From assembly GCA_965214705.1 (NCBI GenBank), contig OZ243972.1:672001-736000 (forward strand): 64,000 bases of DNA. The letters run 5' to 3'. The first letter of the stretch is position 1. Each line of letters begins with the position of its first letter. The notes beneath the pieces are model-generated. The model worked only from the letters and a program-made list of their open reading frames with translations, was not told the origin of the DNA and searched no databases. The translations under genes were made by a program, and so were the position numbers. This stretch comes from Alphaproteobacteria bacterium (lineage in GTDB: Bacteria; Pseudomonadota; Alphaproteobacteria; UBA828). Shown piece by piece: positions 2,905-26,302 of the stretch.

Positions 2905-4098
2905 GTGTCGAAACTGACAGCTGCGGGGATACGGAGCCTGAAGACGCCTGGCATGCACGGCGACGGAGCCGGGCTCTACCTCAAGATCTCACGCACCGGC
3001 GCCCGGTCGTGGATACAGCGCGTGGTGATCTCAGGGAAACGGCGAGACATCGGTCTGGGTCGGTTCCCGGATGTCGGCCTTGCCCAGGCACGCGATAGTG
3101 TAACGAACAACCGCAGGCTGATCGCGGCCGGCGGCGATCCGCTCGCCGAGAAGCGCAGGGTCGCCACCCCAACGTTTCGGGAGGCCGCCGAGCGCACGTA
3201 CGAAGCGAACAAGCCGCGCTGGCGCAACGGCAAGCACACGGTGGGCTGGTGGCAGTCGCTGGAGCGGCACGCCTTCCCGATCATCGGCGACTTGCCCGTT
3301 GACCAGATCGGCCGAGAGGACGTGCTGCGCATCCTTACACCAATTTGGCATGTACGCATGGAGACCGCGCGGCGCGTCAGGCAGCGCATCCGCACGATCC
3401 TCAAGTGGGCCATGGCTCACGGATATGTCGAGAACAACGTCGCGGGCGAGACGATCGACGGCGCGTTACCGCCCATGCCGAGGGTCAAGAACCATTTTCG
3501 AGCGATGCCTTACGGCGAGGTGCATGAGGTGATCGAGGCCGTAAGGGGATCGAGAGCCTCCCTGGCGTCCAAGTGGTGTCTCGAGTTCCTGATCCTGACA
3601 GCCGCGCGGTCAGGCGAGGCGCGCGGCGCTTGCTGGTCAGAGATGGATACGGACACCGCCACTTGGACCGTCCCGGCCGAGCGCATGAAGGCCAAGGTCG
3701 AGCACCGCGTACCGCTCTCGCCTCGCGCCATGGCAATCCTGGCGGAAGCCAAGTCCATCCAGCATTTCGCGAGCGACCTCGTGTTCCCGTCTCCTCTGCG
3801 GCCGGGCAAGTCGATGAGCGACATGACCCTGACCAAGCTGCTGCGCGATCTCGCATTCGCCGATCGCACCACAGTCCACGGATTCCGGTCGAGCTTCCGG
3901 GACTGGGCGGGCGAGTGCACAAACGCGCCGCACGCGGTCATGGAGCTCTGCTTGGCCCACGCGGTGGGCAGCGCCGTTGAGGCGGCCTATGCGCGGTCTA
4001 CGCTGCTTGAGAAGCGCCGCGCTCTTATGGAGCAATGGGCGGCCTACCTGGAGGGCGAGGAAGGACGCGTCGTGCCGATGGTGCGCCACCTTGGATAG
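2905..4098 (+). CDS. P4-like tyrosine integrase with N-terminal arm-binding domain
   Basis: HGDGAGLYL...RRDIGLGRFPDVGLAQAR arm domain; catalytic residues in ARSGE, RMK, HGFRSSFR, LAH and AAYAR; probable GTG start at 2905. Confidence 0.95.
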   Translation: MSKLTAAGIRSLKTPGMHGDGAGLYLKISRTGARSWIQRVVISGKRRDIGLGRFPDVGLAQARDSVTNNRRLIAAGGDPLAEKRRVATPTFREAAERTYEANKPRWRNGKHTVGWWQSLERHAFPIIGDLPVDQIGREDVLRILTPIWHVRMETARRVRQRIRTILKWAMAHGYVENNVAGETIDGALPPMPRVKNHFRAMPYGEVHEVIEAVRGSRASLASKWCLEFLILTAARSGEARGACWSEMDTDTATWTVPAERMKAKVEHRVPLSPRAMAILAEAKSIQHFASDLVFPSPLRPGKSMSDMTLTKLLRDLAFADRTTVHGFRSSFRDWAGECTNAPHAVMELCLAHAVGSAVEAAYARSTLLEKRRALMEQWAAYLEGEEGRVVPMVRHLG

Positions 4099-4180
4099 GC
4101 CACGTTGCCCCTGCCTGGAAGGGCGCTCTCCCCCTGTCCCTCCTCGCCTCCACGCCCTCGTCGATCAGGATGGCCCCTTC

Positions 4181-4936
4181 CTGATCGAACACAGCTTGGC
4201 GGACCTGAAGCAATACCTAAGTGAGAAAGATCGGATCGACCACTTCAAAGCGTGCCAAAGCTTGGTCGTTGATAATCCAAAACCTGATGACGGAGGGGAT
4301 GATGATCCAGAGTTTGATCGGGGCTGGAATGTAGCGGCCACTGAAGAGAAGCGCTTTAGTCCATTCTTGGAGCCTGCGTCGAGAGATAGAGAGGCAGCGG
4401 AGAAGATCGACTCTCGGCGCGAGTTGATGGCCAGGCACATCTTGAATGTCGAGGACGGAATGCTAGCCGGATTGACCTACCAAGACGCCATTGTGCGCTA
4501 CAAGGCTTTCGGCATGCTCGATGTCTACTACCGGTTTGGTGCATGTCTGCGATGCCGAAAGTGGGTGGAACAGGCCAAGATCGACCCGCGAGCCGACAGT
4601 TTATTGCGTCATCTCGTGGCTCTGATTGTCAGTTTGGGGGAGCCGATTCCGCCCAGTCTACGAAATTGGGCGGGTGCCGCACTGTTCACTGATCGTCTGG
4701 AGCGCCGACGGGGACCGAAACCGATGAAGTGGAGGCGCGACCAGAAGATTACTTTGGCAATCGATATCTTGACCAATCTGACAAACTCGAAACTGAAGGA
4801 TGCGCTGGAGATAGTTGCAGAGGCGTGTCGAAAGGAAGGCCTCATCGATGCGGACCCGGAGACCATCAAGAAAATACGGGACCGGGTGAGGAAGAAGGCG
4901 AAGAAGAGGGAGGCGAAGGCAGACGCGGTCTCCTAA
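4181..4936 (+). CDS. Hypothetical protein between integrase and AlpA (start uncertain)
   Basis: Open frame 3977..4936 overlaps the integrase, so the real start is probably later; basic C-terminus; position typical of P4-like islands. Confidence 0.5.
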   Translation: MIEHSLADLKQYLSEKDRIDHFKACQSLVVDNPKPDDGGDDDPEFDRGWNVAATEEKRFSPFLEPASRDREAAEKIDSRRELMARHILNVEDGMLAGLTYQDAIVRYKAFGMLDVYYRFGACLRCRKWVEQAKIDPRADSLLRHLVALIVSLGEPIPPSLRNWAGAALFTDRLERRRGPKPMKWRRDQKITLAIDILTNLTNSKLKDALEIVAEACRKEGLIDADPETIKKIRDRVRKKAKKREAKADAVS

Positions 4937-10177: not shown

Positions 10178-10186
10178 CGGCCCGGA

Positions 10187-12694: not shown

Positions 12695-13558
12695 TTAACC
12701 ATTTGGATCAAACAATTGAGCGAGTTCAGTTACAATTTCGTCTATGCTAAGAATTGAGGTGTTCAGCGCCACTTTGTCAGCCAACGTTGGGCTATATTGG
12801 GTAACCTCGTCCTTTGATATTTCATGCCAAATTGGGAGAATACGACTTCGGCCCTCAATTTCAAGATTTACCAAGCCATCCAACTCCCGCTGGGGCCACT
12901 TCTTTGCAATAAAATGTCGAGATATAATCACTATTCCAAAACGTGATTGGACTAGCCCTTGGTCAATTCTCTGTCGCAAACTATCCCCTATCTTTAGAGT
13001 GAACTCATCATACCAAACCCTTGCTCCTTTAGCTCGAAGAGCTTCCGCTAAAGCGTGAACAAAACTGTCTTTGTCTTCACTAGCATGAGAAATAAAGAAA
13101 TCATAGCTATCTCTAGGTTGAGGAGCTAGTTGGCGTGACACAACCGGCGTGGATTGCAATGTTGCACGAGACCTTATTTCCCTAGTGATTCTTCTTTCGT
13201 GTTGTTCGCGCTCACGAATTTGCTTTTTCTCTTGGTCGGCACGTCTTTTTGCCTCCCTTTGCACTTCTTGTGAGTGTCGGTCCTGACATGAGTTCAAGCT
13301 TCTTGACTTATCCGATATTTTTCTGGAGATATCCGCTCTCCGCTTTTGAACATTCGCCAAATCTTTCATCGCGCGCTCGGCTTCTCGCGCCTTACTCTGA
13401 AACGTCGAGGAACTTCTTGTTTTGGAAGCAGCTTCGTTAGCACGGTTTATTTTCGCAATAAGGTCAGCTTCCCTTCTTGCTTCTCGAGCGTCGTTAGCAC
13501 GGAGGTCCGCGATTTCCTTCGTAAAACGATTGATCTGGTTTTGGTTAGCGGAGGTCAT
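12695..13558 (-). CDS. Coiled-coil plus TIR domain protein (TcpB/BtpA/PdTIR-like architecture)
   Basis: Long charged helical N-terminus; YDFFISHASEDKD, VWYDEFTLKIGDSLR, and KKWPQRELDGL with the catalytic Glu. Confidence 0.92.
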   Translation of the reverse strand: MTSANQNQINRFTKEIADLRANDAREARREADLIAKINRANEAASKTRSSSTFQSKAREAERAMKDLANVQKRRADISRKISDKSRSLNSCQDRHSQEVQREAKRRADQEKKQIREREQHERRITREIRSRATLQSTPVVSRQLAPQPRDSYDFFISHASEDKDSFVHALAEALRAKGARVWYDEFTLKIGDSLRQRIDQGLVQSRFGIVIISRHFIAKKWPQRELDGLVNLEIEGRSRILPIWHEISKDEVTQYSPTLADKVALNTSILSIDEIVTELAQLFDPNG

Positions 13559-13901
13559 TTTTCTCTTGGCGGAACTGGGAGCGCTGTTGCGCCGGAAGGA
13601 AAAATGTCGATGGCCCAGTCGCATTGCTGCGTCCGGCTATATCGGTACCGTGTTGAAGCCGCTCCGGGTGCAGAGGCCGCCTTCGGGTGTAACAGTCTCT
13701 GTACGACCGACCTTTATGAAGGATCTGATAGGCGACGAGGCGGTAATTGCTGACCGAGGCGGAGTTGCTGCTACAGTATCTTTCTTCGTTGAAGTAGATG
13801 TCGAAATTATCGTCGCTGCAGTCGGCAAGAGTGTGGGCTTGAATCGCGAACAGATCGATCGAGCAAACGCGGTTGAGGACGGTAGTCATGCGCGGCATCA
13901 C
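13545..13901 (-). CDS. Possible small hypothetical protein inside the TIR operon
   Basis: ORF fills the gap between two TIR genes on the same strand; no recognisable motif. Confidence 0.3.
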   Translation of the reverse strand: MMPRMTTVLNRVCSIDLFAIQAHTLADCSDDNFDIYFNEERYCSSNSASVSNYRLVAYQILHKGRSYRDCYTRRRPLHPERLQHGTDIAGRSNATGPSTFFLPAQQRSQFRQEKNDLR

Positions 13902-13910
13902 TGCTTCGCC

Positions 13911-14516
13911 TTAGGAGTTGGCACGCCGCATGGGCTGGCTCAGGTCGTAGCCACAGTTTGCTCGGTTACGAAAGGCAGCTTCAATCAGAAATTTGAGAGT
14001 CTCGCCGTTTATTCGTTCCCAGGGAACGACGGAGATTGTGACATCGGATTTCATGAGGTTGTCGATGAGCCGGCTTGGCATGCGGGGATACCGACGCTCG
14101 TACTCCGCTCGTTTGTCGATTGTTGTCCATGACGTAATATTTGGATACAATAATCGCTTTTCTTGTTCCCCATAGGGTGCGTGAAAATAGTCAGAAATCC
14201 CAGGAAGATTGATAACTACAATGCCCGATCTCTTGTTGACCGAGCCATCGTACATGCTCGAATGAATTTCCCAATCGACGTGTTTTCGCCGTCTGGTCTC
14301 TGTACCGACCAAAACAACGGTGACCGTGGAGTCCCTGAGATAGCGGTCTCTGATTGCCCGACGAATTTGTTCATCGGTCCATGTGTGAGGAATATCTCCG
14401 GTATCGACAGACCTGTCGACAAATATTGAATAACGCTCGCCAAAGTCTACTAACGCTTCCTTGTACCTTTGATCGTTATCATGGTGATAACTAATGAATA
14501 CTTTGTGCATAGCCAT
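13911..14516 (-). CDS. ThsB-like TIR protein (MTH538/DUF1863)
   Basis: HKVFISYHH, YLRDSTVTVVLVGTET and HVDWEIHSSM (catalytic Glu). Confidence 0.9.
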   Translation of the reverse strand: MAMHKVFISYHHDNDQRYKEALVDFGERYSIFVDRSVDTGDIPHTWTDEQIRRAIRDRYLRDSTVTVVLVGTETRRRKHVDWEIHSSMYDGSVNKRSGIVVINLPGISDYFHAPYGEQEKRLLYPNITSWTTIDKRAEYERRYPRMPSRLIDNLMKSDVTISVVPWERINGETLKFLIEAAFRNRANCGYDLSQPMRRANS

Positions 14517-15330
14517 TCTTATTTGTAACGATTTGATGTAAACCACGGGATACGATGTCGACTGCCTCTTGGATATGAGGCGTCCGAGCTAGGACATAGT
14601 TTTCCTCCTGGGAGAGACCGTTGTGTAGATCGTCCGGGGAATAGTTGCGAAAACAGTCTCTTCCGGACCAATCCTCGCGCGAGCCTCCCCAGCGTTCGGA
14701 GAGCCCGAGTGTTTCCGCGATGTCGCGAGCGCAGCCGCCGAAGCCGCCCAGCAGGAAGACCGGCTGACCGGCGTCAAGCGAGAGGTATGTCTCCTCGGCG
14801 ATACCCGGCATGGCGCCTTTGAATCCCTCGACTCTGCCGCCCAGAACGATCCGAGCAGATATGTCGGCGAGCATGACGGTTCGCATTGAGGTCAGTCCTT
14901 TCGCCCATTCATACTCCTGAGGTGCATGCGCAGGAAGGCTCATACGTTGTTCCCGTTCAAGACGTGCGCCGTCCAAGGAAAGGAAGACGAGGTGAGCGGC
15001 CGGCTCGTGGTCCGCAGAGAACGCTGCAAGTTCGTTCGAGGTCATGCTGATGTGCACCGGCCACGCCAGGTAGTCTGTCACGACTATGGTGCCGGCGTGC
15101 CGCGGATGACCCCGATAGCGTCCAACCAACTCGGCCAAGAGCTGGGTAAACCCGTGTTGTCGCAGATCCCCGCCGTATGCCAGACTAATTCCAGAAGCGA
15201 GCAAGCGCAGTGCAACCTCAGCCATGGCGTCGCGCAAATGTCCGTCGCTCAGGCCGAGGACGCGGAGGTCGGGGCTCTCTGAAATCGAGATCCCGACCGA
15301 GGGGGTTGTCTCCGCTTGGGGTGAGGTCAT
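14491..15330 (-). CDS. SLOG-superfamily protein (LD_cluster2-like), candidate signal sensor/effector
   Basis: VGISISES, LAYGGDLR..GFT, GLTSMR, ARIVLGG, MPGIAEE, PVFLLGGFGG; overlaps both neighbours. Confidence 0.82.
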   Translation of the reverse strand: MTSPQAETTPSVGISISESPDLRVLGLSDGHLRDAMAEVALRLLASGISLAYGGDLRQHGFTQLLAELVGRYRGHPRHAGTIVVTDYLAWPVHISMTSNELAAFSADHEPAAHLVFLSLDGARLEREQRMSLPAHAPQEYEWAKGLTSMRTVMLADISARIVLGGRVEGFKGAMPGIAEETYLSLDAGQPVFLLGGFGGCARDIAETLGLSERWGGSREDWSGRDCFRNYSPDDLHNGLSQEENYVLARTPHIQEAVDIVSRGLHQIVTNKNGYAQSIH

Positions 15331-16502
15331 CGACGTTCCTCCAGCCAGTCCGTCAAGGTCTGTACGCGTACCCCCGGTGCGATTTCCCGGAACAGCCTCT
15401 CATCGTCGGCGCTTAGAAGGGGTTCAGGATATACGATCGTGTGAGCCGAGTCCTCGGCACCAAGTGGTACTGCAGCCAAAGCGATCAACTCTGGTGGGCG
15501 TGCCGTGAACAGGACTCCTGGAGCATCCGTCATATACGACCCTACACGGCAAAGCCACAGCCAAGTGCGGAAGACCTCATCCAGGAGGCAGCCTGCAACC
15601 GTCCCGATCCGGTCACTACGGTCCGGATCCATACGGACGACCGGAACGTTCCCCAGATAGGACATCCCGCGCGGATCTACATCTCGCACGCAATCGACCA
15701 CGATCATGGGCACCAGGCGACGTTTCGCTTCGATGACTTCGCGCCGGCACCATTCGCGGGATGAGTACGAATCAGTATGGACCGCTAGGAGCGCGCCTGC
15801 CCCGATCTCATGCAGCAGTACGTCTCCGAACGAAAGCCCCGGCGGGATGTCATAGACATCGAAGAAGCTGTCGAGCGGGCTGTGCGTGTGGATCCAGTCG
15901 CGAATGCTGCGTCCCACGGATTCGCCATCGCCGTCATGCTTCGAGTGGCTGATGAAGACCCGAATCTTGTCCAGATAGCGTCCGAGCGTGTCGTCTCCAG
16001 CGCCGGCGGGCCGGAGTTGGTCGAGGCCATGTCGGAGCATTCGACAGAACTCGTGAGTGAGATCTGAGGTGAGGCGTCGTGCAGGGTCTACATCGGACGC
16101 GTCCCAGCGGTCCCACCGGAGGGCTTGCTGTGCGACCCCAAGGCCAAGGCCCCGGCGGTCCATTGTCACCGGGAAGAACCCGGCCGGAAGTCCTCGCCGG
16201 TGCGCGGCATCCGCGATGGCGGATGCGTAGTCGACCCACTCGCGATCTTCAACTAGGTTCGATTCCGCCAGAACCACAACGGCGGTAAACTGCGAGTCAT
16301 CCCAGTGGATTGGCAAGGGAGTGAGCGCGCCTGGCACGGGCTGGCTACGCTCAAGGACGCTTACGGCACGCTCCTGCCCGACGCCCCGATAGAGATCACG
16401 ACCAAAGTGCGTGCGGAGGAGATCAGCAATCTGCTGTCCTTCGCGATACGATGGATGCCACACCACGTACAGCGTGAACATCGGACCTGTCGATAACTCC
16501 AT
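15327..16502 (-). CDS. TIR domain protein with an N-terminal degenerate TIR-like region
   Basis: RVFISHSKHDG, FFDVYDIPPG and YSSREWCRREV (catalytic Glu); ATGA overlap with the SLOG gene. Confidence 0.88.
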   Translation of the reverse strand: MELSTGPMFTLYVVWHPSYREGQQIADLLRTHFGRDLYRGVGQERAVSVLERSQPVPGALTPLPIHWDDSQFTAVVVLAESNLVEDREWVDYASAIADAAHRRGLPAGFFPVTMDRRGLGLGVAQQALRWDRWDASDVDPARRLTSDLTHEFCRMLRHGLDQLRPAGAGDDTLGRYLDKIRVFISHSKHDGDGESVGRSIRDWIHTHSPLDSFFDVYDIPPGLSFGDVLLHEIGAGALLAVHTDSYSSREWCRREVIEAKRRLVPMIVVDCVRDVDPRGMSYLGNVPVVRMDPDRSDRIGTVAGCLLDEVFRTWLWLCRVGSYMTDAPGVLFTARPPELIALAAVPLGAEDSAHTIVYPEPLLSADDERLFREIAPGVRVQTLTDWLEERR

Positions 16503-17127
16503 GGTGCTGAAAACCCAGTCTCACGTTCGTTCAGTAATTCGCTCATTCATTCGGCGCCGATCCCGATTGCGTTGGATGTTTGTGGAAAGCAGCCTCGGCT
16601 CCTCGTCCGGATACACGCAAGGTGGGATCAAAGGCGAACTCATGGTCACGGGTTTCTCCGTCATTGCAAGCGTCTTTCGCAGCTACTTGCATAGGCCTCG
16701 GTTCAGGCTCCCCACGTCTGGGCTGCGCAAGCCCGTCGTGGGCTGCCGTGTCGATATTCAGTCTGGATCCATTTGCGGCATCGGCACTTTCCTGGGGACG
16801 GCCTCGGTGCTGCCATGACGCCAAAGGCTATCGTTGTGGGCGCCCCACAGTGAAGTTGTCGGGTTGCGCCGTCTCGACTGGGATGATCTGCGGCCTGGTG
16901 AGGACGCTGAGGCTCTGGTACGTGGTCTCGTGGTGGCGGGTGACGAGATCGGCACGGTGCGCCGCACGGGCGGGAGGGGTTGCCCGAGAGGGCTTCACCG
17001 CCAAGATTCCAACCGTGCGCGGCTGGCGGGGTTGAATTTGGCGATCAGAACCCCAGATGTAGTGTTTTGGGCGAGGGAAGGCCATACCCGTCGTGTTCGG
17101 TGGATTTGGCCAATCAGGAGAATCCAA

Positions 17128-17418
17128 GTGTCGGAGAGCAGATCTCACAAGACAACGGCGAATCGTTTGGCGGCCCGGTACAACACCGAGTACAACCGTG
17201 GACCGGGGGCCGACATCAAGGCGGAGGGCATCACGATCGAGGTAGAGACACCCGACACGGTCGCTGACGCGGGCAGGCAGCTGAGCGGTCATCGTGGTCC
17301 GGTATATGTCGCGGGGACAAACCAGAAGGCGGTAGAGCAGGCGCTGGACCGGTACGAGGACTCGACCATTGGCGTTATGAACAATCGAGGAAATATCATC
17401 AAGCCGTCGACGCGGTAG
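17128..17418 (+). CDS. Small protein with a PD-(D/E)xK-like nuclease signature
   Basis: AGGAG RBS before GTG 17128; SH......GADI...TIEVET resembles the H...D...EVE restriction-fold motif. Confidence 0.55.
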   Translation: MSESRSHKTTANRLAARYNTEYNRGPGADIKAEGITIEVETPDTVADAGRQLSGHRGPVYVAGTNQKAVEQALDRYEDSTIGVMNNRGNIIKPSTR

Positions 17419-17559
17419 CCTGCGGCGCTTTACGAATCAAGGTTCCGCAGACCCGCGATTGTCCGTTGCTCCAGCGTTCCATGCGCTATCCGGATTGAAT
17501 GAGGCGTAAAGCTCATTCGCGGCTTTGCAACCTAGGGATCAGAGGAGACCGCATAGATT

Positions 17560-18144
17560 ATGGCACGCTATTTTTCGGGCACGAGAAGCGAATTTCTCAC
17601 GCTTGAAGCTGCATCGAAGAGGGATTTGACGTGGGATGTTTTTGTGTCCCATACCACCGAAGACGACGATGTCGCGGAAGAGGTCGCCGAGTGCATCCGG
17701 AGCTTCGGGCTGTCGGCATGGGTGGATTCCGACCATCTGGACAGTAAGCATGATGGACCGAGTATGGCGTCCATTATCCAGGGGGTGATCCGACGGTCAT
17801 ACTGCTTACTGGCTGTCGTGACGAGCGCGACGAACGAGTCGTGGTGGGTGCCGTTTGAAATTGGTGTGGCTTCCGACAGAAAGAGGTACCTGTCCACATT
17901 CGGGGACCCGCGAGTGTTACTGCCGTCATTTCTTGCGGCCTGGCCGCGCGTGAGGGATCACGCGGAGCTGCATTTGTGGTGCTCCGAGGTGAAGAAAAAG
18001 AAAGCAACGCATAGGCCAATAATCCATGAATCGTATGTAGAGGTGGCGAGCGCACAGCGCTCCAGCTACGCTAGTGACATGAGAGCAATGGCCCGAAGGT
18101 TCCCAGGGCTCCGATGGGGTGTAGGTCTGGCATGGCGATCGTAA
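17560..18144 (+). CDS. TIR domain protein; the last residues are read through into the IS end
   Basis: WDVFVSHTTEDD, SAWVDS and SWWVPFEIGVA (catalytic Glu); GAGGAG RBS. Confidence 0.9.
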   Translation: MARYFSGTRSEFLTLEAASKRDLTWDVFVSHTTEDDDVAEEVAECIRSFGLSAWVDSDHLDSKHDGPSMASIIQGVIRRSYCLLAVVTSATNESWWVPFEIGVASDRKRYLSTFGDPRVLLPSFLAAWPRVRDHAELHLWCSEVKKKKATHRPIIHESYVEVASAQRSSYASDMRAMARRFPGLRWGVGLAWRS

Positions 18145-19795
18145 GTCATTGATTTAGCGCGATTGGCGGGTGGCCGTAGGCAGCCAGAATCGGGTTTTCG
18201 TGACAATCGGCCGGTGCAGGGCCGGATTTTGTCACAACGGCGGCATCCAGCAGTGGTGGGTGGGAACGCTCCGCACCGCGAGATGCGGTAGGATGCCGCG
18301 CCGACAACCCAACATCAGACCCAACATCAGGAGCGTTCCCATGCCAGTGTCGCAGTCTCTCATCGCCTCGTCCATCGACCTTTTGGGCCTGCCTGCCGAA
18401 GTCGCCGAAGCGGTCGCCCAGGTGGTGGAGTTCTGTCGCGAACAGGCTGGGTCTGACCCGTCTGCCGAGACGTTCGAAACGGTTGAGACGGGGCTGCGGG
18501 ACGCCATGAACGGCTTGGGTTGCAAGCTCCTTGGGGCCTTCGCCGAGAGCCGCGACGACGGTGCGAGCCGGATCGAGCGCGACGGACAGAGCTGGGTCCG
18601 GGTGGCGGCGACGCCGAAGACGATCATGACGACGCTCGGTCCCGTGACCTATCGGCGTGCGCGCTATCGCAGCGGCGCGAGCAGCACGTCGCTGGTGCCG
18701 GTGGACGAGAGCCTGGGCCTCATCGACGACTACCTGACGCGGCCGGCGGCGCAGCTCGGGCTGATGATGATGGGCCACTGTACGCCGCGTGAAGCGGAGG
18801 AGTTCTTCGCGAAAATGGGCGGAATGACGCCGTCGGTGAGCACGCTGCAGCGCCTGGCCCTGAGCATGCATGAGCACTGGGAGAGCGTCGCCCCGGAGAC
18901 GCTGGCCAGCATCCGTGAAACCCAGGGCATACCGCCCGATGCGGTCACCGCGTCCGTCTCCCTTGACGGCGTCATGGTGGCGCTGCGGGCCGGCGAGGAC
19001 GGCCGTGCCGAGGCGTGCTGGCGCGAGGCCTCTTGCGGCACGGTCTCCTTCCACGACGCCGAGGGCCAACGGCTGAAGACCCTCTATCTCGGCCGTATGC
19101 CCGAGAGCGGCAAGGCCGCGCTGAAAGCGCAACTTGCAAGCGAGGTCGCCCATATCCGCCGTGTGAGCCCGAAGATCAGGATCGGCGCCGTCGCCGACGG
19201 GGCCGCCGACAACTGGACCTTCCTCGAAAGCCTCTCGCCCGAGACCGAGGTCATCGACTTCTGGCACGCTTGCGAGCATCTCCGCGTGGCCTCTGACCAT
19301 GCGGTGGCGCGCCACTGGTTCGAGAAGCACCGCGAAATCCTGCGCCACGACCCCCGCGGCGTCGACAAGGTGATCCGGGCACTGCGCTACCTCCTGGACA
19401 GGGCAAAGGGGGACCCGGCCGAGATCGAGCGCGAGCTGGCCTTCTTCCGAAAGCACCGCCATCGGATGCGCTACCACGCCCTGAAGGAAGAGGGCATCGC
19501 CATCGGCTCGGGTGTGGTCGAGGCGGCCTGCAAGACCCTCGTCGCGCAGCGCTTGAAACGCTCGGGCATGCGCTGGCGGATCGACGGCGGGCAGGCGGTT
19601 CTGACCTTCCGCGCCCTGATCAAATCCGGCCTCTTCGACCGGGCATGGGATGCGCTCATGGACGCCCGATCCGGACCAGCTAACGACAACATCAGCCCAA
19701 CCGAAGTCCTGGCACTCGCTGCTTGACCAAAATGAACCAGCCCATATCCTTTAGCGCCATCACGACTGGCATATCGCCATACGAGAATCACACCC
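18117..19795 (+). mobile_element. ISKra4/ISLre2-like (p-MULT) insertion sequence
   Basis: Imperfect 23-bp TIRs GGGTGTAGGTCTGGCATGGCGAT and ATCGCCATACGAGAATCACACCC; 8-bp TSD CTCCGATG at 18109..18116 and 19796..19803. Confidence 0.9.
18341..19726 (+). CDS. ISKra4-like DDE transposase
   Basis: SLDGVMV, VADGA..NW, IDFWHACEHL and IGSGVVEAACK...RLKRSGMRW. Confidence 0.9.
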   Translation: MPVSQSLIASSIDLLGLPAEVAEAVAQVVEFCREQAGSDPSAETFETVETGLRDAMNGLGCKLLGAFAESRDDGASRIERDGQSWVRVAATPKTIMTTLGPVTYRRARYRSGASSTSLVPVDESLGLIDDYLTRPAAQLGLMMMGHCTPREAEEFFAKMGGMTPSVSTLQRLALSMHEHWESVAPETLASIRETQGIPPDAVTASVSLDGVMVALRAGEDGRAEACWREASCGTVSFHDAEGQRLKTLYLGRMPESGKAALKAQLASEVAHIRRVSPKIRIGAVADGAADNWTFLESLSPETEVIDFWHACEHLRVASDHAVARHWFEKHREILRHDPRGVDKVIRALRYLLDRAKGDPAEIERELAFFRKHRHRMRYHALKEEGIAIGSGVVEAACKTLVAQRLKRSGMRWRIDGGQAVLTFRALIKSGLFDRAWDALMDARSGPANDNISPTEVLALAA

Positions 19796-19800
19796 CTCCG

Positions 19801-20184
19801 ATGAGCGAAGAAAAGAGCGATTTGGCAACACTGTTCGGCATCTACAAGATTCATGCCGAACTCGCGGAACAAGCTGCCAGCTCAAGAGAGAGCTTGAACA
19901 AGCTCTACTCCGGTATGGTCACGGCGATCGTAGCGGGTTCGGTGCTAATTCACCGTGTGGCCCCGGATTCCGATACGATGTGGGTATTGCCAGTTCTTGG
20001 AATTGCTGTATCCCTGTCTTGGATGATGTCGCTTCACTCAGCGACGGGACGGCTGTCCGCCAAGCACGCGGTTCTGTTGGAATTAGAATCTAAACTACCG
20101 TTTGCCTTCTTGAAGCGTGAAAATGGGTACTGGGTTGCTTTGAAAGATAGAAAGATAACGCCAGAAGTTACACCACTAATTTAG
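19801..20184 (+). pseudogene. Small two-TM membrane protein, C-terminally truncated at 20124 by the IS1-like transposon
   Basis: Two hydrophobic segments; YKIHAELAE...R...N.LY and W......L.AKH.V...LE..LP pattern; codons after 20124 lie in the transposon TIR. Confidence 0.7.
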
Positions 20185-20213
20185 GAGGAAGAAGAATTCG
20201 GGGCAACAAATCA

Positions 20214-20342
20214 ATGCCAACAAGAAAGCGCCTGACAAGGGCAGAGCGAAAAGCCAATAGACGGGGGACTAGAGAGTACTATAGAAAGCAGAAAGATAAG
20301 AAGCTGCGGGATAAACGCAACAAGCGAAACAGGAAAAGGTGA
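20214..20342 (+). CDS. Possible 42-aa Arg/Lys-rich peptide
   Basis: MPTRKRLTRAERKANRRGTREYYRKQKDKKLRDKRNKRNRKR, followed by a GAGGGTG...CACCCTC hairpin. Confidence 0.35.
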   Translation: MPTRKRLTRAERKANRRGTREYYRKQKDKKLRDKRNKRNRKR

Positions 20343-20591
20343 GGGTGCCGTAACTTTGACACCCTCGCCATCAAAATCACAATGATCTAATCTATGACTG
20401 GCACCTACAATCTTTACCGATCGGCTACTCCCTCATTGCCAAATCCGCCCTCAGCGAAAATATGCAAGGATGATGTGGTACTCCTTTTTGCTAGTGGGGC
20501 GGTATTGCCCCGGTGCCATGCAGCGGCACCGGGGCACCTTGGGCCGAGATCGAGTGCGGTACAAGTTAAATTTCGGTAATCATGGCAAGCC

Positions 20592-20996
20592 TTACTCAAC
20601 GGCAACACCTATGGAAAGACAGCCGAATGTTGGTGGGTTAAGTTCTTTTATAATCTTAGAAACAGATCGGTCAAGAGAAAGCGGCGGGGCAGCGTTATTC
20701 TCTATTTTAATGTGGTTGGTTCCGGGGTGCAGTAGTTTCATATCATAGTCTGGATTCCCTTGACTATCATACGTAGAAAGTCCAACAGTTAGAAGATTAC
20801 CCTCGTACACTAATCTTATAGTTGAACTGATCCAAATCGGCAATCGCGTCTCCGTGTTGTTGGTCAGCGTCATAGACATTGACCAAGAAATATATCTAGC
20901 TACACCACTATCCCCAAAGCTGATTTCTTCCCATACTTCGCTAAACGTGACATCTTCCACAAGAACATTTCCATCTTCATCAAATATTAATGACAT
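20592..20996 (-). CDS. Hypothetical passenger protein, beta-rich, possibly 5'-truncated
   Basis: 134-aa ORF in AT-rich DNA; no motif recognised. Confidence 0.45.
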   Translation of the reverse strand: MSLIFDEDGNVLVEDVTFSEVWEEISFGDSGVARYISWSMSMTLTNNTETRLPIWISSTIRLVYEGNLLTVGLSTYDSQGNPDYDMKLLHPGTNHIKIENNAAPPLSLDRSVSKIIKELNPPTFGCLSIGVAVE

Positions 20997-21231
20997 GTTT
21001 TTCCAGTCATCACTTGTTCCACAAGTAAAGTTTTCTACGTGAAACAGGGGAGCTACCCCGATCTCGAAGCAAGGTTATTATATTCAGTGGGCGACCCGAC
21101 CAGCGGGTTTCCCAAGAGAAAGTTTGCGCCATCATTGTTCACGCTTTCTTTGCTAGTGTCAAGGATCGCAGCAACACACTGGAATCGTTGATGAATTGAT
21201 GAGTTGACCCCATCCTCTCTTGATGCGATGA

Positions 21232-21259
21232 TAGACTAGGTCAAGTAATGACTAGTCTA
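21232..21259. promoter_or_regulatory. Palindromic operator-like site upstream of the IS1-family transposase
   Basis: TAGACTAG-GTCA-AGTAA-TGAC-TAGTCTA directly before the AAGGAGG RBS. Confidence 0.5.
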
Positions 21260-21275
21260 CAAGGAGGATGGGAAA

Positions 21276-22130
21276 ATGAATCAGCTATCGAGGGAGAAGC
21301 GTAGACTTATATTACACTTGCTTGTGGAGGGAATGTCGATACGTTCTATTTGTCGAGTGCTAAAAGTATCTAAATCTGCGGTCACGAAACTACTGGTCGA
21401 TGGCGGCAAGGCTTGTCAGAAGTATCACGACAAAAAGGTACGCAGGCTAAATTCACTGGTGATCCAGTGTGATGAGATATGGTCATTTATCTATGCCAAG
21501 GACAAGAACCTGCATAAATGTATAGCCGCTCCAGCTTGGGCAGGCACGACATGGGCATGGACCGCGCTGGATAGTGAGAGCAAACTAATAATCTCGTACA
21601 TGGTAGGAGATCGGTCGGCAGATACCGCGATAGAATTCATGCAGGACGTAGAATCTAGACTGTTGAACAGGGTACAGATTACTACAGACGGTCATCCGGC
21701 CTATAGGGACGCGGTCTTAGAGGCGTTCGAGGGCGAAGTAGATTTTGCGCAATTGGTAAAGACATTTGACGATAATTGTCCCGGTATAAATCTAAGGGCC
21801 GTAGAAGGCGACCCGCAGGAAAACGATATTAGCACTAGTTTTGTAGAGCGGCAGAATCTAACCATGCGAATGGGCATGAAGAGATTTAGCCGTAAAACAA
21901 ATGCGCACTCGAAAAAAATAGAAAACCACTGCCACATGATAAGCCTGTATTTCGTCTACTACAATTTTATTCGTATACACGAGACCTTGGGAATCACGCC
22001 AGCTATGGCTGCCGGTGTCAGTAAAAGAGTAAGAGACCTAGATTGGCTGGTTGGTTTGATAGATAAAAATGCACCGAAGCCTAAGCGGCCCAAGCGATAT
22101 AAGAAGCGGAAAAAGAGAGATTGTAAATGA
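21276..22130 (+). CDS. IS1-family DDE transposase (single ORF, N-terminal HTH)
   Basis: EGMSIRSI HTH; IQCDEIWSF, QITTDG and STSFVERQNLTMR. Confidence 0.9.
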   Translation: MNQLSREKRRLILHLLVEGMSIRSICRVLKVSKSAVTKLLVDGGKACQKYHDKKVRRLNSLVIQCDEIWSFIYAKDKNLHKCIAAPAWAGTTWAWTALDSESKLIISYMVGDRSADTAIEFMQDVESRLLNRVQITTDGHPAYRDAVLEAFEGEVDFAQLVKTFDDNCPGINLRAVEGDPQENDISTSFVERQNLTMRMGMKRFSRKTNAHSKKIENHCHMISLYFVYYNFIRIHETLGITPAMAAGVSKRVRDLDWLVGLIDKNAPKPKRPKRYKKRKKRDCK

Positions 22131-22176
22131 AGTGTATCGAGGAACTAATTTATCCCAAAGGGATAATCATAGTCAA

Positions 22177-22770
22177 CTAGGTTTGCATACTGATATTATA
22201 AGTGCCCTCAAGCTGGAGGTTGGAAATCTCATGGACGATACCTTTATCCTTTGCCCAGTTAGCATCATACACCCGTTGAACGTCGAAAAATTCGCGGGCC
22301 TTGGAGCGTTCCAACAAGCTACGGCTGGAGATTATATCCCCAATCCTTGTATGGTCCGCTTCAACACTATCCAAGTACTCTCTGAACTGCCGACCGTCGA
22401 GCCTTGTAGGACTGTTGAAATCAAATCCTACACTGTGAAACAAAAATATCGAAGTGGGCGCACAATATCTTTTTTCCCCTGCCAAGAAAAGCACATTAGC
22501 GATTGAATCTATATGACCTACATTGTAAGTAATCAGGGTGATAGGTAATGACCTCATCATCGTATAGCAATGTATCCCAGCATGAACATTGCCTCCATTG
22601 CTGTTAATTAGCAAATGCACCTCTGCTGATCTGGTAGAAATTTCACGAAGAGTTATTATGAGTTCATGCATGGTTTGGTCATTTACGCCACGCGAAAACC
22701 ATACGTACTCTGTCGGTTTTGTTGCCACTGCTTCCGCCTCGGGGTTGTGAATATTGTTTGCACGTAGCAT
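22177..22770 (-). CDS. ClpP-family serine protease
   Basis: HLLINSNGGNV, IDSIANVLFLAG (catalytic Ser) and FLFH (His). Confidence 0.85.
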   Translation of the reverse strand: MLRANNIHNPEAEAVATKPTEYVWFSRGVNDQTMHELIITLREISTRSAEVHLLINSNGGNVHAGIHCYTMMRSLPITLITYNVGHIDSIANVLFLAGEKRYCAPTSIFLFHSVGFDFNSPTRLDGRQFREYLDSVEADHTRIGDIISSRSLLERSKAREFFDVQRVYDANWAKDKGIVHEISNLQLEGTYNISMQT

Positions 22771-22901
22771 ACGTTCTATTGAACGTCAAGAAAAAGGATG
22801 GCATTATGAGGATAAGATGGTTTAATGGTACCCTGCTTATTAGAGCAGGTACAGATGAAGAGCATGAAATGTTAGTGAAAATGTATGACTTACTGGAGGG
22901 A

Positions 22902-23210
22902 TTAAAATTTGGACGGGAGCTTGAAACCGGAATAATCAGCGATGTCGATGACGTTGAGCCTGTCGCCCTTGACGAATAGCTTTTTGCCATTGACCCGATG
23001 GGACAAAAGATGCTCTCTTATATCTTCAGCTGAAGTATTTTCCCAGCGTACAATCCATTGGGTCTCTGTAGCTTTCATGGCTTTGCGACTTTTACCATCA
23101 CCTTTTATTTCTTTAGCAATCTTATTGTAGCTGTCTTTATCCTTATTATCCAAGTCAAAGCTGATCGAATAGAGATCGGCGTTCTTTGCTTCGTCGAAAA
23201 TTTCTTTCAT
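22902..23210 (-). CDS. Small Cas2-like/'SinR-family' ferredoxin-fold protein
   Basis: YSISFDL......Y..I...I......TQWIV....A..I...L.....DRL.V pattern. Confidence 0.55.
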   Translation of the reverse strand: MKEIFDEAKNADLYSISFDLDNKDKDSYNKIAKEIKGDGKSRKAMKATETQWIVRWENTSAEDIREHLLSHRVNGKKLFVKGDRLNVIDIADYSGFKLPSKF

Positions 23211-23335
23211 TACGCTTCTTGTTATTGATATCGGCTCTCTCCACCGGGGTTCCTCGCGGCGGGGAATTGTACCACACTATTATTTGAGCACAACTAGGGA
23301 GTTAGAAATGTATCTTTCAAAGCAACCCAGTACCC

Positions 23336-23926
23336 AGGGGAAGATTTCTCAAATACGACGTGCATGCACTCCCGGACTTTGACGCAGAATTTCCGGAAGA
23401 GGAGAGACTTCCACAGACATTTAGGATTGAAATCAAACAGCGGGGAACCGGAAAGTGCTACCTAAGGTGGAATGAAGTATTCATTGGGAACCCGTTGACT
23501 GACAATATAGAAGCTTCGGATGACTATCGTTTTCATGATGTATTTCACTTTGCGCATGCAGCCATACTGCACTGGTCGCCTACATTTCGCTCGCTCATTC
23601 GGCAAAAACGCAAGAGTGATGAGAAGTTCGACGAGAATCAGGACGGAGGACGAGCGATCGTAATTGAGGAAGGTTTAACAGCATATATATTTGCGTGTGC
23701 AAAGGAGTTAAACTTCTTCGAAGGTCAGTCGTCGATTTCCTTTGATCTCCTAAAGACGATTGGGAATTTCGTACGAGGTTACGAGGTGGAGCAGTGCCCT
23801 CTCAAGCTATGGTAAGATGCGATATTGCAAGGCTATTCTGTTTTCAGGTCATTACGTGAGAACAGTGGCGGCGTAGTTGTGGGCAACAGAGTAACGCGGA
23901 CCATTTCTTACGAAGAGGAGGGATGA
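23336..23926 (+). pseudogene. MazG-like nucleotide pyrophosphohydrolase, MazG_C domain only; 5'-truncated with an internal TAA at 23813
   Basis: IGNPLTDN...DYRFHDVFH.A.AAILHWSP..R.....KRKS....DE.QDGGRA...EEG; frame continues W*DAILQGY..FR to a TGA overlapping the UDG start. Confidence 0.78.
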
Positions 23927-24600
23927 TGGCTGTTACGAATCCATGGGGTATCGTATCCATGGTAAGGGATTTGAGATTCCCGAACACGTTCAATCCGTAT
24001 GTCGAGCGGTGCGAGAAGTATGATAAGCCAAATGCACCGGAGATTAGAGCCTGTGTGCTTCTCGATATTTTGTGTGCGGCGGGTAAGGCCGACATTGATG
24101 CAATATGGATTGGTCGGGATCTAGGCCATCGCGGTGGTCGACGGACTGGCTTGGCACTGACTGACGATTTCTGGTTTTCCGCTCATACCAGACGATGGGG
24201 GGTGGACGTGGACCGACCCACACGTGGTCCGATAGTGCGGGAGAGGACCGCGACTATTGTGTGGGAAATGCTTGAACTGATCGAGGAAAATGTTTTTCTG
24301 TGGAACGTGTTTCCGCTTCATCCGTTTCCAAAAGATGATATGTACCGAGATCGCGCGCATATCGCGATTGAGCGCGACGCAGGCATGGTACTGCTACTCA
24401 GGTTGGTATCGTTCTTGCGGCCACGACGGATTATCGCAATCGGCAAGGACTCGGCACGAGCATTGGGCAACAAAACGGTGGAGGTGGACGTATTGGATGT
24501 ACGACACCCCAGCTACGGGGGTGAGAGGCGGTTTCGCGAGCAAATCGCTTCGCTTTACGGCTTAGGGATTTGTGATTCCCGGCCAAGCCTTCAATTGTAG
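23923..24600 (+). CDS. Uracil-DNA glycosylase superfamily protein
   Basis: FNPY, IGRDLGHRGGRRTGLALTD, ERTATIVW, WNVFPLHP and VRHPSYGG. Confidence 0.85.
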   Translation: MMAVTNPWGIVSMVRDLRFPNTFNPYVERCEKYDKPNAPEIRACVLLDILCAAGKADIDAIWIGRDLGHRGGRRTGLALTDDFWFSAHTRRWGVDVDRPTRGPIVRERTATIVWEMLELIEENVFLWNVFPLHPFPKDDMYRDRAHIAIERDAGMVLLLRLVSFLRPRRIIAIGKDSARALGNKTVEVDVLDVRHPSYGGERRFREQIASLYGLGICDSRPSLQL

Positions 24601-24741
24601 GATACGGAAGTACGAGTCGGAAGTCGGACTGGGGACGCCGGTGCGCACGTCTATGGATGGCTGCGTGTCAGGAATGGCCAACGCGTTCGATGAGCGCCGT
24701 CTTTATACAAGCTGTGGGAAGAAATTGGGGGAGGGCAAGGG

Positions 24742-25518
24742 ATGACGTTGCTCAACTTGGGTCCGGCTGAGGCGATAGAGCACGTCGGCAGGTTGGTTCC
24801 CGCTGGATGCGACGAAAACGCGGTATACGCTAGGTCTCTGCGATTTGGAGAGGATGATTCTGGTGAGGTCGTGCATGTGCCGGCGGGAAAGAGGTTGGTG
24901 ATCCGCGCCGGAGACCTGTCCATCGACTCGGATGAACTGGACGCGAAGAGCGCGAAGGGCCGAGGCGGGTACGCTCCGGTGGCGGATACCATTTGGACTT
25001 GGTATCGGATAGCAGGCGCAGGGGATAGCACACTTCTGATGCTGCTATTGGCCGCCGCCAGAAGGTTAGACGCTACACATGTATTTTGGTCAGGGACGAT
25101 GGATGCTCTGGAAGAGGCGTGCACTCTGGCTGATAATTTGCGGAGGCCCACCCTATTCCGGGCTTTGGCCATGGCTGAGGTGACATTGATTTCTTTGTCT
25201 CGAGGGATGGAGATGATTTATCGGTTGGAGAAGGAATTCAGCTTAGGCCTTCAGATATCCGAAAAATTTGACACCAACGCGAAGTCGCTGCGTCGGATGC
25301 GGAACGCTTTGGAGCATATCGACGATCGGGCGTTGGGGCAGGCCAAAGATGGAACGGCGGACAGTGCCATGTCCATCTTCTTTCAACCGTATTTCGTGGA
25401 CCACGGTGTTCTTACTTATGCCGGCGATGCGCTGTCGTTTGCCGAAGGCATTCCCAGGGTTCTGGGCGAGTGCCGGGAGCTAATCAAGAGTGTAATTGAC
25501 CTTCGTCCACGTGGTTAG
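24742..25518 (+). CDS. Hypothetical protein with a HEPN-like Rx4H motif
   Basis: Helical C-terminal half containing LRRMRNALEHIDDR. Confidence 0.55.
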   Translation: MTLLNLGPAEAIEHVGRLVPAGCDENAVYARSLRFGEDDSGEVVHVPAGKRLVIRAGDLSIDSDELDAKSAKGRGGYAPVADTIWTWYRIAGAGDSTLLMLLLAAARRLDATHVFWSGTMDALEEACTLADNLRRPTLFRALAMAEVTLISLSRGMEMIYRLEKEFSLGLQISEKFDTNAKSLRRMRNALEHIDDRALGQAKDGTADSAMSIFFQPYFVDHGVLTYAGDALSFAEGIPRVLGECRELIKSVIDLRPRG

Positions 25519-26290: not shown

Positions 26291-26302
26291 GAGCTTGCTG
26301 CA

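Follow-up and report, generated by a model that had tools for sequence, protein, structure and literature searches.

The window, by which we mean the whole 64,000-nucleotide stretch of DNA analysed, contains a block of genes that has been interrupted by two mobile elements, the earlier order of which can be read by comparison with a locus (L012) in a Pseudohongiella MAG. The features of the block are as follows, with strand given where one applies.

16697-24691: block homologous to the ~5-kb cassette of the Pseudohongiella MAG (L012 2582-7537), broken up by two mobile elements and shortened by a deletion of 1.85 kb
17128-17418, + strand: conserved 96-aa ORF with a GTG start, the first operon gene in both the window and L012
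17560-18144, + strand: TIR gene, of which 17560-18114 (185 aa) is ancestral coding sequence; the present ORF has 194 aa, with 9 codons from the insertion sequence (IS)
18109-18116: left copy of CTCCGATG, an 8-bp target-site duplication, by direct reading
18117-19795, + strand: ISKra4-like IS of 1679 bp, bounded by imperfect inverted repeats of 24 nt
18341-19726, + strand: IS transposase, 461 aa (NCBIfam NF033572 ISKra4 family; Pfam UPF0236, 4.6e-8)
19796-19803: right copy of CTCCGATG, target-site duplication, ending in the ATG start codon of the 8xMP gene
19801-20184, + strand: truncated 8xMP-family gene (Pfam PF24838), a 127-aa ORF with homology to residue 108 only
20124-23336: second mobile element (3213 bp), richer in AT and bounded by inverted repeats of 39 nt
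21276-22133, + strand: IS1-family-like transposase, 284 aa, inside the second element
23360-23818, + strand: MazG/MazG_C remnant, the C-terminal 151 aa (Pfam MazG_C, 2.4e-64); the L012 counterpart has 386 aa
23923-24603, + strand: UDG-superfamily gene, the last of the shared cassette (Pfam UDG, 4.9e-6, 27.1 bits versus a cut-off of 24.3)

Comparison by blastn reveals three segments of the block that are shared with the Pseudohongiella locus: 16697-18116 corresponds to L012 2582-4003 (83%), 19795-20125 to L012 3995-4325 (90%), and 23335-24691 to L012 6175-7537 (90%). The lengths balance once the two elements and the deletion are included (4956 + 1679 + 3213 - 1850, i.e. ~7995). The gene order in L012 is a 96-aa ORF, a 185-aa TIR, a 147-aa 8xMP protein, a ThsB-type TIR, Nmad2, MazG and a UDG-like gene; terminal repeats bounding the 5-kb shared cassette were considered, and none were found. 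The 96-aa ORF has 189 homologues of 96-98 aa with 60-90% identity and no Pfam match; its AF2 model (pLDDT 93.5) gave weak matches to restriction-endonuclease-like folds (YaeQ, E 0.03; XPF; Hef), and its Atlas lead is PDDEXK (0.83). A search of Rfam with 10000-27000 gave no match at E<=0.1; the conserved sequence ahead of the 96-aa ORF is no known RNA.

The first mobile element lies exactly between the 185-aa TIR gene and the small membrane-protein gene. Its inverted repeats (18116-18139 and 19773-19796; 24 nt) are 79% complementary, and its GC content is 0.68, versus 0.56-0.60 in the flanks. When its own genome was searched with 18090-19830, with 40 matches scored, 22 further full-length copies at ~100% identity were identified, the alignments of which run from query positions 23-31 to 1706-1712, equivalent to 18117-19795 of the window within a few bases; truncated and diverged copies were also among the scored matches. 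The genome is in the midst of an IS burst. Judged from its transposase, the element is a relative of the ISKra4 family rather than a confirmed member: like ISKra4-family elements it has terminal inverted repeats, an 8-bp target duplication and many identical copies, and NF033572 is by far the best match for the transposase ORF (1.9e-49, 168.9 bits), but the transposase scores below the curated cut-off of 205, which is the reason for the reservation. The insertion, which struck the overlap of the TIR stop and the 8xMP start, has parted the two genes by 1.7 kb, swapped the sequence preceding the ATG of the 8xMP gene, and added nine residues to the TIR protein. A promoter-like site (19723-19750, + strand) is present in the end of the IS, facing the 8xMP remnant; the promoter/terminator scan was uninformative, with 3 promoter-like sites versus 1.2 +/- 1.2 expected.

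The TIR assignment comes from matches to Pfam TIR_2 (1.5e-10, 42 bits versus a cut-off of 28) and to the PADLOC ThsB model PDLC00436 (1.6e-12); the protein is 68% identical to the L012 TIR, and E100 (window numbering), which aligns with the catalytic Glu, is invariant, together with an F28/S30 motif, in 11 aligned 8xMP-linked TIRs. The sequence-only reading that preceded this analysis had proposed that removal of the IS and one CTCCGATG copy restores an overlap between the two genes, and on such removal the TIR frame indeed ends FPGLR, with a TGA overlapping the ATG at 19801 (ATGA). Its further proposal, that the TIR and membrane-protein genes were once a translationally coupled unit, is borne out by an intact pair with the same overlap in L012, where the 185-aa TIR ORF (3447..4004) overlaps the 147-aa homologue (4001..4444) by ATGA. 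The TIR/8xMP junction of another locus, L013, is identical to that of L012; since both show the same overlap, the restored junction is no chance reading.

The description of the pair as a two-gene module was, by contrast, too narrow, the ancestral unit being TIR, 8xMP and ThsB-type TIR, preceded by the conserved 96-aa ORF. Within the close subfamily, the downstream ThsB_TIR gene, which has been deleted in the window, is a more constant partner of 8xMP than the upstream TIR gene. Because the latter is absent or a remnant in six of 13 close loci (L014, L015, L017, L049/50 and L051), 8xMP need not be coupled to it.

The second mobile element is present as a single copy in the genome and has a GC content of 0.41-0.48; its inverted repeats (20124-20162 and 23298-23336; 39 nt) are 85% complementary, with no flanking duplication on reading of its ends. 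Simple replacement by AT-rich DNA over 20126-23334 was considered and ruled out, the segment being a bounded element with these 39-nt inverted repeats. Its transposase matched NCBIfam transpos_IS1 (6.1e-23, 81.8 bits, below the cut-off of 100) and Pfam DDE_Tnp_IS1 (4.7e-10). Approximately 1.85 kb of the cassette (L012 4326-6174) is without a counterpart in the window. Lost at the second element are the C-terminal 39 residues of 8xMP, which contain the third transmembrane (TM) helix, together with the ThsB-type TIR, Nmad2 and the N-terminal half of MazG; the arrival of the element is tied to this ~1.85-kb loss. It is this element, missed in the sequence-only reading, that caused the C-terminal loss from the membrane protein. 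The system in the window has been inactivated twice, by the ISKra4-like IS and by the IS1-like element with the 1.85-kb deletion, and it has no live function.

The truncated membrane protein is the sole match to PF24838 (8xMP) in its genome (9.3e-12, 45.4 bits versus a gathering threshold of 30), and it covers profile positions 3-103 of 136, i.e. it is a truncated member and the domain is not full-length; the homologues P0071 and P0102 cover positions 1-132 and 1-134, respectively. Intact homologues score 45-53 bits and relatives up to 148 bits. The family of octameric membrane proteins named in the sequence-only reading does exist, as PF24838. Most of the 113 homologues of the window protein have 147 aa, so that the suspicion of a missing C-terminus was well founded: 39 residues have been lost, which are found nowhere else in the genome (tblastn), with divergence from the homologues beginning after residue 108 (~nt 20124) and the last 19 codons coming from the second element.

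The intact homologue has three hydrophobic helices rather than the two previously assigned to this protein. Its AF2 model (pLDDT 86.3) has helices at residues 2-53, 62-96, 103-113 and 117-146; the segment 79-122 contains 10 K/R versus 5 D/E, the loop 54-61 contains 0 K/R, and the conserved polar residues Y15, R29, K88, E96 and E107 are located in the predicted cytoplasmic parts. Pfam reveals 8xMP alone in the truncated and the intact proteins, even at E<=10, in agreement with the earlier statement that Macro, SLOG and SAVED domains are lacking. Searches with the 8xMP profile against PDB sequences gave a single chance match (E 0.85), and those with the model gave no match at E<=1e-3 in the PDB with Foldseek, generic helical bundles and designed proteins with VIA wide (top Z 10.3, in the noise range of helical models), and only 8xMP or unnamed clusters in the ESM Atlas; no source name is attached to six 8xMP clusters. 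Francisella RipA may be a member of the 8xMP (PF24838) family; no NCBIfam RipA match was seen in 10 family members (E<=10), the profile set being one that may contain no RipA HMM. Papers on Francisella RipA, judged from their search listing, describe a cytoplasmic membrane protein required for intracellular growth and do not mention TIR. Literature searches returned no relevant paper on 8xMP/octameric membrane protein, RipA octamer, PDC-M50 or PF24838.

The association of 8xMP with TIR genes extends well beyond the window. At 13 of 13 close loci (L012-18 and L048-53) at least one TIR gene is directly beside the 8xMP gene, a count that includes the near-duplicates L049/L050 and L052/L053 and takes in L050 without a separate check; TIR genes were identified by Pfam on picked ORFs at 10 of the 13, and by reading together with PADLOC ThsB PDLC00418 (~1e-58) at L015 and L049. 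Three to four TIR genes surround one 8xMP gene at L018 and L052. A wider set of 40 other 8xMP loci came from two genome samples, 401 of the phylum and 401 of the class, the neighbour check leaving out the sub-threshold PF24838 matches L034-L045 and L047; in nine of these 40, the gene immediately preceding 8xMP in the same orientation is a TIR gene by Pfam (L026, L027, L028, L032, L076, L077, L079, L091 and L096), with start/stop overlaps of ATGA in L076 and TTGA in L079. The expectation of the sequence-only reading that homologues of the membrane protein are linked to TIR genes is, therefore, upheld in all of the close loci and in a minority of distant members. At least six TIR architectures adjoin 8xMP in unrelated taxa, with partner types including TIR_2 (185 aa), ThsB_TIR (136-211 aa), TIR_2/SEFIR, TIR_2 (360 aa) and TIR-NB-ARC-WD40 (1215 aa), the last encoded on a Rhizobium leguminosarum plasmid, where its gene stops 2 nt short of an 8xMP gene. 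A plasmid search for the intact homologue gave one match, and phage records gave no tblastn match for it. At L029, the 8xMP neighbour is a prok_STING protein. The other 31 of the 40 sampled 8xMP genes have no TIR neighbour, their contexts including HemN, DUF2383, T6SS and AOX, so that the 8xMP family is not confined to TIR signalling.

Of the features by which Thoeris systems are recognised, a TIR gene with the catalytic Glu and an operonic candidate effector gene adjoining it are present, and a known signal-binding domain (SLOG, Macro etc.) is absent from 8xMP as judged by Pfam. In type II Thoeris, TIR-made His-ADPR activates Macro-TM, a membrane-disrupting effector; the arrangement described here is similar in that a membrane effector is proposed beside a TIR, but 8xMP is without a Macro domain. 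SLATT proteins, which also occur in CBASS, are small helical membrane effectors that are thought to oligomerise on a nucleotide signal (cADPR). As in type VII Thoeris (ThsB with ThsH, a SLATT protein), 8xMP is a small helical membrane protein beside a TIR, although SLATT has 2 TM helices and 8xMP 3. A SLATT profile check, as suggested in the sequence-only reading, did not reveal a relationship: there was no Pfam SLATT match at E<=10 in four 8xMP homologues, and hhalign of 8xMP with five SLATT_1 sequences gave a probability of 1.3% twice, the other SLATT subfamilies being covered by hmmscan only. A stray NCBIfam SLATT_1 match (E 0.066) was seen on L019 only.

According to the available text of a 2025 preprint (10.64898/2025.12.03.692087), TIRs paired with small multi-TM ring effectors, i.e. 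ThsF (DUF2270) and ThsH (SLATT), are anti-phage and respond to cADPR isomers. Type V Thoeris, comprising the ThsB TIR and ThsF (DUF2270/PF10028), is reported there to be defensive, with 3'cADPR as the trigger of ThsF and a ring containing basic pockets as its predicted assembly; the validated effectors ThsF and ThsG also lack a known signal-binding domain (10.64898/2025.12.03.692087). With type V Thoeris, as far as it is described in that text, 8xMP shares its small size, three membrane helices, TIR-adjacent position and lack of a classical ligand-binding domain. Unlike ThsF, 8xMP has no detectable DUF2270 homology: four 8xMP homologues gave no Pfam match to DUF2270 (PF10028) at E<=10, hhalign of 8xMP alignments with 11 DUF2270 sequences gave probabilities of 3.3% and 1.1%, and PF10028 has no match in the genome of the window.

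On balance, we consider that the locus is probably the wreck of a horizontally transferred, multi-TIR, Thoeris-like anti-phage cassette, with 8xMP as its membrane effector. It is a more tentative proposal, possible rather than probable, that 8xMP (PF24838) represents an undescribed Thoeris-type effector class, i.e. a standing membrane ring of three-helix subunits that is gated cytoplasmically by a TIR-made NAD derivative. We infer the mechanism in each of its aspects, that is defence, signal production, ligand binding and oligomerisation. The TIR proteins would sense phage infection and, with their catalytic glutamate, would make from NAD+ a signal derived from ADP-ribose. This signal would bind a homo-oligomeric 8xMP ring on its cytoplasmic face, which is basic and conserved; the ring, with three TM helices per subunit and the N-terminus inside, would then open, or otherwise perturb, the inner membrane, such that infection is aborted. 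Several TIR sensors may act via one 8xMP effector. By analogy with type V and type VII Thoeris (10.64898/2025.12.03.692087, in its available text), a small-molecule signal would be more economical than direct activation. This explanation is weakened by the constant Nmad2-MazG-UDG neighbours, which could point to another role, linked to nucleotide modification.

Small TIR proteins can be NADase effectors instead of signal makers, and the polarity may be the reverse of that proposed, with the TIRs as NAD+-depleting effectors and the membrane-embedded 8xMP ring as a sensor, anchor or inhibitor, releasing or activating the TIRs once it detects a perturbed envelope or the entry of phage DNA. Such an arrangement is consistent with retention of the catalytic Glu, which is required for plain NADase activity too, with the lack of a recognisable ligand-binding domain in 8xMP, with the observation that translational coupling often marks complex-forming proteins, and with the fusion of one 8xMP (P0220) to an AAA_21/SMC-type ATPase, which shows that a larger defence-type protein can carry 8xMP as its N-terminal module. 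We nonetheless regard it as unlikely, given that 8xMP also follows TIR-NB-ARC-WD40, which has its own sensor repeats, that the presence of several different TIRs per 8xMP fits many sensors acting on one effector, and that the validated TIR plus small-TM systems run the other way (10.64898/2025.12.03.692087, in the text available).

Still less probable, in our view, is the direct activation raised in the sequence-only reading, in which a TIR would bind the cytoplasmic face of 8xMP and gate it without a diffusible second messenger. The ATGA/TTGA overlap, which suggests stoichiometric co-production, and the lack of a known nucleotide-binding domain in 8xMP are in its favour, but the partner TIRs differ widely (16-29% identity with the TIR of the window), and some precede and others follow 8xMP, a pattern not easily fitted to one conserved interface, and the invariant catalytic Glu argues that enzymatic activity matters. 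The lack of a TIR neighbour for most sampled members, together with the non-defence contexts of the best-scoring ones (E ~1e-40, L019-L025), would suit a housekeeping or stress membrane protein that hitch-hikes in defence islands beside TIR genes with no functional link to them. This we find hardly credible: 8xMP lies immediately beside, and in the same orientation as, TIR genes of at least six architectures in unrelated taxa, start/stop overlap is read in L012, L076 and L079, and, since TIR genes are rare, chance adjacency in 9 of 40 and 13 of 13 loci is implausible.

TIR-based signalling is common to bacterial, plant and animal immunity, and a new effector class would represent another route by which an NAD-derived signal kills or arrests a cell. 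8xMP, a family without an assigned function, is tied to TIR genes by recurrent coupled adjacency across phyla and architectures, and it is because of this repeated, translationally coupled adjacency that it is a concrete candidate membrane effector. If 8xMP proteins are indeed TIR-gated membrane rings, one effector class would serve TIRs ranging from a 136-aa ThsB to TIR-NB-ARC-WD40 STAND proteins; members outside of TIR contexts, Francisella RipA perhaps among them, could likewise be membrane rings gated by a ligand; and a testable function would be available for a family otherwise known only as a virulence-linked protein lacking an assigned mechanism. The gain is incremental, in that 29 putative Thoeris effector types have already been listed, which may include 8xMP (2025 preprint, 10.64898/2025.12.03.692087); the terms '8xMP', 'RipA' and 'Nmad' do not occur in the available part of its text, although its effector list may still include this family. 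The window illustrates clearly how two mobile elements have silenced a putative defence operon, and intact loci, L012 among them, can be cloned for testing.

A possible connection concerns the PADLOC candidate system PDC-M50, which comprises a small protein of 134-159 positions (A) and a TIR-like protein (B). No PADLOC model matches 15 of 16 8xMP proteins, including those of the L012 and window type, and the link of 8xMP to PDC-M50, as judged from these profile matches, is weak. The 8xMP of L028 weakly matches two PDC-M50A models, near full length (E 0.0056 and 0.017), and the ThsB-type partners match PDC-M50B with values of 1.5e-10 to 8.5e-5.

Recurrent and tight coupling to TIR genes makes it plausible that 8xMP, a small membrane protein, belongs to a new variant of Thoeris-type immunity. 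The gene downstream of the TIR gene in the window is a member of Pfam PF24838, the '8xMP, octameric membrane protein family' (9.3e-12, 45.4 bits versus a cut-off of 30), and the sole PF24838 member in its genome; NCBIfam and PADLOC gave no match for it. The RipA label proposed in the sequence-only reading was matched by no NCBIfam model and appeared in no source names for the 8xMP family members checked. The upstream gene encodes a TIR protein (Pfam TIR_2, 1.5e-10; PADLOC ThsB models, down to 1.6e-12); its catalytic glutamate, E100, is conserved without exception in an alignment of 11 8xMP-linked TIRs.

The two genes are separated by an insertion sequence (IS):

18117-19795, insertion sequence of 1679 bp with a direct repeat on both sides

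By direct reading, the repeat CTCCGATG brackets the IS at 18109-18116 and 19796-19803; the IS termini are imperfect 24-nt inverted repeats, and the top match of its 461-aa transposase is to the ISKra4 family (1.9e-49, 168.9 bits, below the curated 205 of NCBIfam). A search of the window's own genome (7.9 Mb, 3 contigs) found 22 further full-length copies at ~100% identity, the alignments of which start and stop at the same bases, so the IS limits are set independently of this locus. With the window's copy, the 23 full-length elements lie on all three contigs, alongside truncated fragments and diverged relatives at 70-90% identity, and look like the product of a recent burst. Once the IS and one repeat copy are removed, the TIR frame has 185 codons (17560-18114) and its TGA stop overlaps the 8xMP start codon at 19801 as ATGA. 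The same overlap occurs naturally in an intact pair from a Pseudohongiella MAG (L012), between a 185-aa TIR ORF (3447..4004) and a 147-aa 8xMP homologue (4001..4444), and the window DNA is 83-90% identical to L012 on both flanks of the IS site. The IS ends, the repeats and this intact pair thus bear out both the coordinates and the reconstructed junction of the sequence-only reading. With the IS in place the TIR frame gains only nine codons (194 aa), which probably leaves the TIR itself intact.

The truncation of 8xMP has another cause than the earlier reading gave, namely a second, AT-richer mobile element that it overlooked:

20124-23336, mobile element of 3213 bp with 39-nt inverted repeats at its ends (85% complementary)
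21276-22130, IS1-family-like transposase within it (Pfam, NCBIfam)
22177-22770, minus strand, ClpP-like ORF within it

The element, which also holds ORFs without family assignment, is present in one copy in the window's genome. Its ends show no target duplication and the counterpart of L012 4326-6174 is absent from the window, implying that its arrival was accompanied by a 1.85-kb deletion. Lost in this deletion were the 3' end of 8xMP, genes for a ThsB_TIR and an Nmad2 protein, and the part of a MazG/MazG_C gene that encodes the N-terminal half. The sizes agree (4956 + 1679 + 3213 - 1850 ~ 7995 bp, 16697 to 24691). The system in the window's genome is therefore dead twice over, by the IS and by the second element with its deletion.

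Among 113 8xMP homologues, mostly of 147 aa, the window protein aligns up to residue 108 and diverges beyond. In an AF2 model of the intact protein from L012 (pLDDT 86.3), helices span 2-53, 62-96, 103-113 and 117-146, and hydropathy gives three hydrophobic segments, with a basic linker at 79-122 (10 K/R) and an acidic loop at 54-61, suggesting an N-in/C-out topology with three TM helices rather than the two previously proposed. Hence the window copy is without its third TM helix, part of the 39 missing C-terminal residues, of which no trace was found elsewhere in the window's genome.

In the close subfamily (seven loci from species genomes and six from metagenomes, two pairs being near-duplicate), all 13 loci have at least one TIR gene directly adjoining 8xMP, L050 being taken from the layout it shares with L049. 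Pfam searches of 130 greedily picked ORFs placed a TIR in 10 of the 13; for L015 and L049 the picker had chosen an opposite-strand ORF, and reading shows a 158-177-aa ThsB-type TIR directly downstream (PADLOC ThsB PDLC00418, ~1e-58). A local HMM scan located downstream ThsB-type TIRs in L012, L013, L014, L015, L017, L018, L048 (partial), L049, L051 and L052, and upstream TIRs in L012, L013, L016, L018 (two), L048, L052 (two) and the window; of the upstream TIR, L014 keeps just the last 100 bp and L017 the last 76 bp. From this distribution the ancestral unit is TIR - 8xMP - TIR, and the steadier partner of 8xMP in the close subfamily is the downstream TIR rather than the upstream one retained in the window. 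The sequence-only reading of a two-gene, two-TM module accordingly holds for the TIR link, and not for the gene count, the TM count or the cause of truncation. In L013 (179-1110; a MAG at 2.3x coverage) in-frame stops interrupt both the TIR gene and 8xMP, and the catalytic Glu is Gln, reflecting either decay or assembly error.

A wider search for PF24838 covered two sets of 401 genomes, one from the phylum and one from the class; besides the window's, 40 loci were examined, i.e. all matches above cut-off plus L099. A Pfam TIR gene lies directly upstream on the same strand in nine: TIR_2/SEFIR in L026, a 360-aa TIR_2 in L027, and ThsB_TIR in L028, L032, L076, L077, L079, L091 and L096. Two of these, on reading the sequence, have overlapping start and stop codons (L076, ATGA preceded by AGGAGG; L079, TTGA). 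In Rhizobium leguminosarum, a plasmid carries a 1215-aa TIR-NB-ARC-WD40 gene whose end lies 2 nt before an 8xMP gene. The whole family comprises 647 representative clusters (E<=1e-3). Other associations seen were a prok_STING protein downstream of 8xMP (L029, 409-1875), a downstream AbiJ_NTD4 gene overlapping it (L083, 495-1962), and an 859-aa fusion of 8xMP to an AAA_21/SMC-type ATPase (P0220).

We propose that the TIRs would make an NAD-derived signal upon infection and that an 8xMP oligomer would be the membrane effector, since TIR sensors of many unrelated architectures recurrently have the same small membrane protein beside them, a STAND protein with its own sensor repeats is among these partners, and several TIRs accompany a single 8xMP. 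There is also precedent for TIRs with small TM proteins: according to the text of a 2025 preprint (10.64898/2025.12.03.692087), TIR with DUF2270 (three TM helices, predicted ring, 3'cADPR) and TIR with SLATT (cADPR) both defend against phage. A rival, less likely assignment makes the TIR an NADase and 8xMP the sensor; that STAND partner speaks against it. Coincidental adjacency is unlikely: the unrelated contexts of the remaining 31 of the 40 loci, including the best-scoring L019-L025, favour it, and the link found at 13/13 close loci, 9/40 wider loci and the Rhizobium plasmid speaks against it and upholds the earlier claim of TIR linkage. Direct protein gating of 8xMP is another less likely rival. 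In its favour, four intact homologues gave no Pfam match to Macro, SLOG, SAVED, SLATT or DUF2270 even at E<=10, so the earlier statement that the effector has no Macro, SLOG or SAVED domain extends to full-length proteins; conserved polar residues in predicted cytoplasmic helices (Y15, R29, K88, E96, E107) are candidate ligand contacts under the signal-effector proposal.

Thoeris types V and VII appear closest to the 8xMP-TIR unit by function, and neither by homology: when two 8xMP alignments were compared by hhalign with 11 DUF2270 (type V) sequences the probabilities were 3.3% and 1.1%, and with five SLATT_1 (type VII) sequences 1.3%. A possible relative is the PADLOC candidate PDC-M50: the ThsB-type partners of 8xMP match component B, and component A has a weak match to one 8xMP (L028; E 0.0056) and none to the other 15 tested. 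Our literature search found no paper with PF24838, PDC-M50 or 8xMP in the present sense. 8xMP is unmentioned in the text of 10.64898/2025.12.03.692087, the 29 effector types of which are set out in figures and supplementary tables outside this comparison.

The pair sits in a ~5-kb cassette (window 16697-24691 versus L012 2582-7537, 83-90% nt identity; 72-85% with MAGs labelled Gemmatimonadetes, Paracoccaceae and Proteobacteria). No terminal repeats were found where the shared block ends. This sharing suggests recent horizontal transfer. Its other parts are:

17128-17418 (L012 3015-3305), very conserved 96-aa ORF at the operon head
23360-24603 (L012 5001-7537; also L014, L015, L017, L049-L051), Nmad2-MazG-UDG region

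The 96-aa ORF has 189 homologues of 96-98 aa, a confident AF2 model (pLDDT 93.5), no Pfam family match and only weak restriction-endonuclease-like fold matches (YaeQ E 0.03, XPF, Hef). In nine or more of the clusters of these homologues, the longest contig equals in length that of an 8xMP homologue cluster, which suggests frequent co-occurrence. In most close loci an Nmad2 - MazG/MazG_C - UDG-like set lies downstream of 8xMP-ThsB_TIR, with a 5-hmdU DNA kinase helical domain instead in L051; the set may belong to the TIR-8xMP system or form a nucleotide-directed system of its own.

A second TIR system with overlapping gene ends adjoins at 13911-16502 on the minus strand:

15327-16502, minus strand, TIR_2 protein, 391 aa
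14491-15330, minus strand, SLOG cluster-2 protein (Pfam 3.7e-71)
13911-14546, minus strand, ThsB_TIR, 211 aa

A homologue of the 211-aa ThsB_TIR (71% nt identity) lies directly upstream of 8xMP in a Terriglobia MAG (L016). A weak TIR-like match at 12698-13636, minus strand (E 8.4e-5, local HMM from 11 TIRs), could be another TIR gene of the island.
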